Assembly (NCBI RefSeq): GCF_003334255.1 | Contig: NZ_QOWU01000061.1 | Length of the DNA stretch: 27,896 nucleotides | Origin: Escherichia coli | GTDB lineage: Bacteria > Pseudomonadota > Gammaproteobacteria > Enterobacterales > Enterobacteriaceae | Strand: one strand, 5' to 3' | Shown here: positions 27,697-27,896 of the stretch, in pieces | How positions within the stretch are numbered: the stretch's first letter is position 1 | How the letters are laid out: each line of letters opens with the position of its first letter | The notes under the pieces: model-generated | What the model was told of the DNA's origin: nothing | Seen by the model: only the letters and a program-made list of their open reading frames with translations | Databases searched by the model: none | Program-made: the position numbers and the translations under genes

Positions 27697-27819
27697 TTAG
27701 ATTGTTTTCTTCGCCCGCAGGCATAACATAGATAAAACTGACACATTACTGCATGAGGCACCAATATAAGGCTCGGCAGAGAAGCGGTATTCAACGTCAA
27801 CGTGTTTACTCAGGACTTC
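27697..27819 (-). pseudogene. yobF: yobF small-protein gene, 5'-truncated by IS1 insertion (codons 8-47 plus stop retained)
   Basis: Minus-strand frame 12 nt upstream of cspC encodes [40 protein letters not shown], the C-terminal 40 residues of 47-aa YobF as I recall it. The frame then runs 5 codons into IS1 and hits TAA (27835-27837) with no ATG/GTG/TTG start. Confidence 0.6.
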
Positions 27820-27896
27820 GGTGATGCTGCCAACTTACTGATTTAGTGTATGATGGTGTTTTTGAGGTGCTCCAGTGGCTTCTGTTTCTATCAGCT
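27820..27896 (+). mobile_element. IS1 insertion sequence, left end (IRL and beginning of insA); element continues beyond the window
   Basis: 27820-27896 reads GGTGATGCTGCCAACTTACTGATTTAGTGTATGATGGTGTTTTTGAGGTGCTCCAGTGGCTTCTGTTTCTATCAGCT, which I recognise as the first 77 bp of IS1 (23-bp terminal inverted repeat, then insA start). Confidence 0.85.
27875..27896 (+). CDS. insA: IS1 InsA (transposition regulator), first 7 codons only; truncated by window edge
   Basis: GTG GCT TCT GTT TCT ATC AGC encodes (M)ASVSIS, the InsA N-terminus, at the canonical offset from the IS1 end. Confidence 0.6.

Follow-up and report, generated by a model that had tools for sequence, protein, structure and literature searches.

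When a bacterial chromosome is found to run from one gene of a small operon straight into a mobile element, the question is what has become of that operon and what is left of its output. Here this question is raised by the yobF-cspC operon at the end of a 27,896-nt stretch of Escherichia coli DNA (contig NZ_QOWU01000061.1 of assembly GCF_003334255.1; the whole stretch is referred to as the window). CspC is an RNA chaperone and antiterminator that stabilises rpoS mRNA. We hold with good confidence that a 768-bp IS1 transposed between codons 7 and 8 of yobF, and that the resulting allele is a yobF null and, by polar effect, a cspC hypomorph. Insertions of this kind have already been described, IS1 and IS5 in yobF having been published for laboratory-evolved E. 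coli, and the event as such is an ordinary one. What is modestly new is that the same operon has repeatedly been hit by IS1 in natural, clinical and industrial or laboratory strains, two sites having each been hit twice within 1-2 bp.

The junction and the yobF remnant

Window positions 27300-27819 are 100% identical to positions 1907051-1907570 of MG1655 (NC_000913.3). This identity breaks exactly between codons 7 and 8 of yobF (1907570|1907571), beyond which MG1655 reads TTTACTGAAAATGCCACACAT (yobF codons 7-1) and the window reads GGTGATGCTGCCAACTTACTGATTTAGTG..., the boundary between chromosome and IS1 falling precisely on nucleotide 1 of the left inverted repeat (IRL). From there to the end of the window the sequence has no mismatch to any of three annotated 768-bp IS1A copies, one of which lies in NZ_CP165600.1, and an IS1A-family transposase is annotated under the matches. 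Since this stretch matches at tens of thousands of places in 5,426 complete E. coli genomes, the identity is not due to chance. The visible part also has the build of the family, with a terminal inverted repeat at the host boundary and an insA frame that opens at element nucleotide 56, where the annotated CDS of a reference IS1A copy begins as well, and is preceded by a promoter-like site lying partly within the IRL (Table 1). The insAB genes of the inserted element are directed away from yobF-cspC.

In MG1655, yobF is an intact gene of 47 codons (1907448-1907591) whose product, YobF (b1824), begins MCGIFSKEVLSK...; the translation of the remnant in the window corresponds to codons 8-47 of this protein. 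The remnant is devoid of start codon, ribosome-binding site and 5' UTR. Upstream of codon 8 the frame consists of a TAA followed by five IS1 codons (GTT GGC AGC ATC ACC), with no ATG, GTG or TTG among the five; going downstream, the frame offers its first canonical start at codon 33, a GTG. Because the IS1-derived codons and the remnant provide no yobF start, YobF should be impossible to make in the insertion strain. The locus no longer conforms to the description of yobF as a 47-codon ORF upstream of cspC encoding a DUF2627/DUF2527 small protein, as befits a disrupted gene. These results agree with the original prediction, which had placed the switch into the IS1 left inverted repeat, followed by the insA start, at 27820; comparison of 27820-27896 with the annotated IS1A copies (0 of 77 mismatched) bears this out and identifies the start as the GTG at 27875-27877. 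Direct reading likewise upholds its description of a yobF frame that is intact from the stop back to codon 8 and then continues for five codons into IS1 without a start, and the abolition of YobF that it expected follows directly from the sequence.

Downstream of the junction the operon is preserved, with 135 bp separating the cspC ATG from the IS1 end. The Rfam cspA thermoregulator model matches 27400-27850 on the minus strand (129.8 bits), over cspC, yobF and the end of IS1. A cspA-like 5' UTR at yobF/IS1 was considered on this account and rejected, as the score derives from the terminator and from the part coding for the cold-shock domain, the yobF/IS1 portion being aligned with low posterior probability.

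Table 1. Features of the junction region in the window and IS1 insertions at the yobF-cspC locus of other genomes. For the latter, the MG1655 column gives the target duplication.
Feature	Window position	Strand	MG1655 position	Basis or location
cspC intrinsic terminator hairpin AAAAGCCTCG...CGAGGCTTTT and T-run	27400-27432	-		inverted repeat; 3' end of Rfam cspA model, high posterior probability
cspC, 69 aa, intact	27475-27684	-		ORF list; identical to MG1655; annotated as cspC/cspE-family
yobF-cspC spacer, 12 nt, with cspC Shine-Dalgarno AAGGA, intact	27685-27696	-		identical to MG1655
yobF remnant, codons 8-47 and stop	27697-27819	-	1907448-1907570	100% identity
Predicted left copy of 9-bp target-site duplication, CAGGACTTC	27811-27819	.	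1907562-1907570	suggested by 10 IS1 copies at the locus with 8-10 bp duplications
IS1 left end, nt 1-77	27820-27896	+		77/77 against annotated 768-bp IS1A copies
IRL GGTGATGCTGCCAACTTACTGAT, 23 bp	27820-27842	+		identical to IRL of annotated IS1A copies
insA promoter-like site, sigma-70-like	-35 CTGCCA 27827-27832; -10 TATGAT 27849-27854	+		promoter scan
insA start GTG (IS1 nt 56)	27875-27877	+		followed by ASVSIS; 7 codons within the window
IS1, KFu023			1907111-120	rlmA-cspC spacer
IS1, TW01221			1907395-403	in cspC
IS1, KMi029			1907465-473	yobF
IS1, FDAARGOS_1279			1907478-486	yobF
IS1, OkiPb01684			1907487-495	yobF
IS1, W3110 derivative NZ_CP165600.1			1907563-571, AGGACTTCT	yobF (L002 2547-3314)
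IS1, ST131 MB1341			1907615-623	yobF 5' UTR (L003 2599-3366)
IS1, PEC389			1907617-624	yobF 5' UTR (L010 2026-2793)
IS1, CAVP773			1907685-692	upstream of yobF
IS1, ABWA45/CX group			1907855-863	upstream of yobF

The far side of the element

The window ends at IS1 nucleotide 77. A full IS1 measures about 768 bp, has insA and insB' joined by a programmed -1 frameshift, ends in an IRR and is flanked by a target-site duplication of 8-10 bp, usually 9 bp. The remainder of the element can be approached through other genomes. The 10 independent IS1 copies inspected at this locus all measure 768 bp and are simple insertions with duplications of 8-10 bp, from which we infer that the element in this strain is complete and flanked by the 9-bp duplication CAGGACTTC. 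In a simple insertion, the right end of IS1 would be followed by CAGGACTTC and then by TTTACTGAAAATGCCACACAT (CAGGACTTC-TTTACTGAAAATGCC...). With a 9-bp duplication assumed, a 36-aa hybrid ORF, MCGIFSKEVLGNDSNLLIVFYVQIMPDDFVMQLHRF, is predicted, for which no record was found; the right-junction pattern had 0 matches in metagenome contigs, and the left-junction pattern had 0 in metagenome contigs and GTDB representative genomes. At the insertion in NZ_CP165600.1, a hybrid DUF2627 protein of 45 aa is annotated by PGAP.

A different possibility is that IS1 brought about a larger rearrangement with its edge at the junction, be it an adjacent deletion, an inversion or IS1-IS1 recombination, in which the 5' end of yobF along with yebO, mgrB and so on has been deleted or moved. 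That the window stops inside IS1 accords with such an event, the lineage has many IS1 copies available to recombine, and large IS-mediated deletions arose in the same kind of experiment as the yobF insertions (PMC13162491). However, the copies inspected at the locus were simple insertions with duplications in 10 of 10 cases, and the nearest relatives have mgrB, yebO and kdgR in syntenic positions. A rearrangement thus appears unlikely, and a simple insertion of the whole element remains the preferred reading.

Probable consequences for cspC expression

IS1 is known to be polar in both orientations. In a strain carrying the complete element, transcripts from the native yobF promoters would have to run through the 768 bp of IS1, antisense to insAB, and would largely be terminated on the way. 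Expression of cspC would then drop to a residual level, sustained by read-through or by a weak internal promoter in yobF, and cspC would be detached from control residing in the 5' UTR, such as that exerted by OxyS. The promoters listed for the operon are yobFp1, yobFp2 and a cryptic intragenic one, cspCp8 (PMC13162491), and OxyS represses the operon through a pairing site close to the Shine-Dalgarno sequence of yobF (PMC10965054).

The closest published counterparts point in the same direction. In Saint-Ruf et al. (2026; PMC13162491), two isolates from an ageing MG1655 colony, one with IS1 and one with IS5 in yobF, show a cspC log2 fold change of -1.5 (about 2.8-fold lower mRNA) and a yobF log2 fold change of -1.29. 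Since about 35% of the wild-type cspC mRNA remains in these mutants (PMC13162491), silencing would be partial. The lesion in the window is positioned as in the adaptive loss-of-function class of yobF-cspC mutations, inside the operon and upstream of cspC, and by analogy with this class cspC expression in the insertion strain is most likely lower.

Perhaps the insertion is instead neutral or even activating for cspC, by way of a hybrid or outward promoter or of an internal yobF promoter, so that loss of YobF would be its sole real consequence. The IRL does carry an outward-facing TTGGCA, which matches the -35 consensus at 5 of 6 positions and lies 8 nt from the IS1 end, the cryptic internal promoter cspCp8 would be retained, and IS1 insertions reportedly create hybrid promoters (Prentki et al. 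1986). However, the -10 partner at 17-nt spacing, AGTAAA, matches at 3 of 6 positions and lacks the conserved A2 and T6, and a consensus scan of the minus strand across the junction returned no sigma-70-like outward promoter. A lenient scan of the IS1 end for promoters of outward or hybrid type gave at best this same pair (TTGGCA-17 nt-AGTAAA, 8/12, with a poor -10), which we dismissed as a likely strong promoter. Moreover, the published IS1 and IS5 insertions in yobF lowered cspC mRNA instead of raising it (PMC13162491), and we consider a neutral or activating insertion improbable. The original prediction had offered two routes to altered cspC expression: displacement of the native promoter finds support in these published insertions, whereas promoter activity borne by IS1 finds none in the sequence. 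A polar reduction of cspC expression is thus the reading we retain.

Strain context and age of the insertion

The identical junction is present in 0 of 5,426 complete E. coli genomes searched with a 91-nt junction probe; every place where 80% or more of the probe was covered proved to be yobF with an IS1 elsewhere in the vicinity, or a match of low identity. The chromosomal part of the window is almost identical to strains G1/2, G6/7 and G8, the Symbioflor-2 probiotic strains (PMC4358396). Against G1/2, the closest complete genome, it differs by 2 SNPs and one 1-bp homopolymer indel over 27.8 kb. In G1/2 the 144-bp yobF is intact, with yebO, mgrB, yobH and kdgR coming after it, and yobF is intact in G6/7 and G8 as well, in keeping with the earlier claim that the gene is whole in MG1655 and that the insertion is specific to the strain. 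The window begins 76 nt inside IS186/IS421, positions 1-76 being the terminal 76 nt of that element (reverse complement of CATAAGCGCTAACTTAAGGGTTG...); this IS186 insertion adjoins a truncated DUF1971 gene upstream of leuE and is also found in G1/2. Since the near-identical G1/2 has the same IS186 and yet an intact yobF, the IS1 insertion is recent and private to the lineage of the window. It arose in an IS1-rich background, as the Symbioflor-2-like relatives have roughly at least 20 IS1 copies.

Roughly 77 nt at either end of the window are repeat sequence, which gives it the look of a short-read contig delimited by repeats. Short-read assemblers leave about one 77-mer of repeat at real repeat boundaries. 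Although this contig shape and the absence of the insertion from the nearest complete genomes might suggest an assembly artefact (a chimeric contig end) or a minority variant in the sequenced culture, a break exactly at IRL nucleotide 1 is a signature of transposition, unlike a random chimera, and at a real repeat boundary an assembler is expected to stop one k-mer into the repeat, which renders this explanation highly improbable.

Other features of the window deserve mention in their own right. The BCCT transporter gene yeaV (around window positions 3400-4880) is annotated in G1/2 as a pseudogene without its N-terminus (L012 4505-5986); the window is nearly identical to G1/2 in this area, with one SNP at 3284. 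Upstream of mntP lies a manganese (yybP-ykoY) riboswitch (25710-25806, plus strand), whose 41.6 bits fall just short of 45, the Rfam gathering score, so that it is missed in a default scan. The sRNA sroD (8266-8351, minus strand) is a full-length Rfam match with 115 bits.

IS1 recurrence at the yobF-cspC locus

How often IS1 has entered this locus was assessed with chimeric queries of locus and IS1 sequence, run against the 5,426 complete genomes. IS1 lies no more than about 0.9 kb from the operon in at least 63 genomes in one orientation and in at least 9 in the other, and a combined query, made of 601 bp of the locus and both IS1 ends, found it at the locus in at least 69. The same approach gave at least 3 genomes for the control locus yobD-mntP, at least 6 for yoaL-manX and at least 40 for the AT-rich yoaB-yoaC spacer, all these being genome counts inflated by clonal lineages such as the ST361 group. 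Besides the copy in the W3110 derivative, at least 8 more IS1 elements have inserted independently into yobF-cspC or the sequence immediately upstream (Table 1), which carries a laboratory observation over to natural isolates. Thus, the yobF-cspC locus is IS1-prone, but not uniquely so.

About 40 genomes, several of them labelled strain 361 or ST361 and mostly of human origin, have in common an IS1 that precedes the yobF ATG by roughly 600 bp; its position, at MG1655 ~1908199 in the yobF-yebO spacer, is inferred from a 1260-bp match span. MB1341 (ST131) and the pig isolate PEC389 carry IS1 at nearly the same point of the yobF 5' UTR in opposite orientations, a second local hot spot. Around the yoaB-yoaC intergenic region and yoaC (window ~13959-14600, 38% GC), IS1 is found within about 1 kb at many different sites, so that this region is about as IS1-prone as yobF-cspC.

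IS1 prefers AT-rich DNA, and this preference could explain much of the recurrence in natural genomes. Since an AT-rich control region also has many IS1 insertions, repeated hits at yobF-cspC need not reflect selection, and the idea that recurrence in natural genomes by itself signals selection was dropped in view of the yoaB-yoaC control (at least 40 genomes versus at least 69). The copy in the window may have been selected, or it may be a neutral outcome of high IS1 load and target preference.

In laboratory E. coli, disruptions of yobF-cspC recur and are mostly tied to higher competitiveness under starvation or stationary-phase-like conditions. In an ageing MG1655 colony, lesions in yobF-cspC were found in 12 of 24 isolates, the majority of such mutants outcompeted their parent, and a clean cspC deletion brought a fitness gain (Saint-Ruf et al. 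2026, PMC13162491). Selection of a TraDIS transposon library enriched insertions in yobF and cspC in 6 of 6 populations (PMC12956098). Mutations in yobF/cspC were also convergent in small-volume long-term stationary phase, and another evolution experiment yielded a yobF-promoter mutation alongside down-regulation of CspC. Disruption of the cspC upstream region in K-12 reportedly abolished expression and raised fitness (Rath and Jawali 2006, J Bacteriol 188:6780). It is tempting to propose that in natural and probiotic-type E. coli, too, IS1 insertion into yobF-cspC recurs under positive selection as a means of lowering CspC and, along with it, part of the RpoS-linked stress programme, with preferred target sites at yobF codons 7-10 (two independent insertions, 1 bp apart) and 24-33 bp upstream of the ATG (two insertions, 1-2 bp apart). 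We put this forward tentatively and judge it rather doubtful.

Implications and comparison with known insertions

For the strain itself, an absence of YobF and reduced CspC are predicted. In the published analogues the change goes along with a shift from stress protection to metabolism and motility and with better competitiveness in starvation. The insertion could therefore matter when culture-adaptation mutations are judged in a Symbioflor-2-like commensal isolate.

Three further known systems can be set beside the insertion. The first is IS1 of the IS1A type from E. coli K-12, with which the visible 77 nt agree throughout, including the IRL, the insA promoter region and the GTG at nucleotide 56, although only 10% of the element is visible. 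The second is the W3110 derivative NZ_CP165600.1, which carries a full 768-bp IS1A at a target 1 bp from the one predicted for the window (1907562-1907570). There the element has the opposite orientation, sits in a different lineage and has both junctions visible, and hence represents an independent event. The third comprises the isolates of Saint-Ruf et al. (PMC13162491): Y5 has IS1 in yobF at 1,907,482 with a 9-bp duplication and oriented opposite to the operon, and Y6 has IS5 at 1,907,444. These isolates are hit in the same operon and likewise within yobF upstream of cspC, Y5 by the same element in the same orientation as in the window. Compared with their positions, the site in the window, at 1907570, lies upstream of cspCp8 and does not adjoin it. 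Furthermore, these isolates derive from MG1655, whereas the strain of the window is a Symbioflor-2-like commensal.
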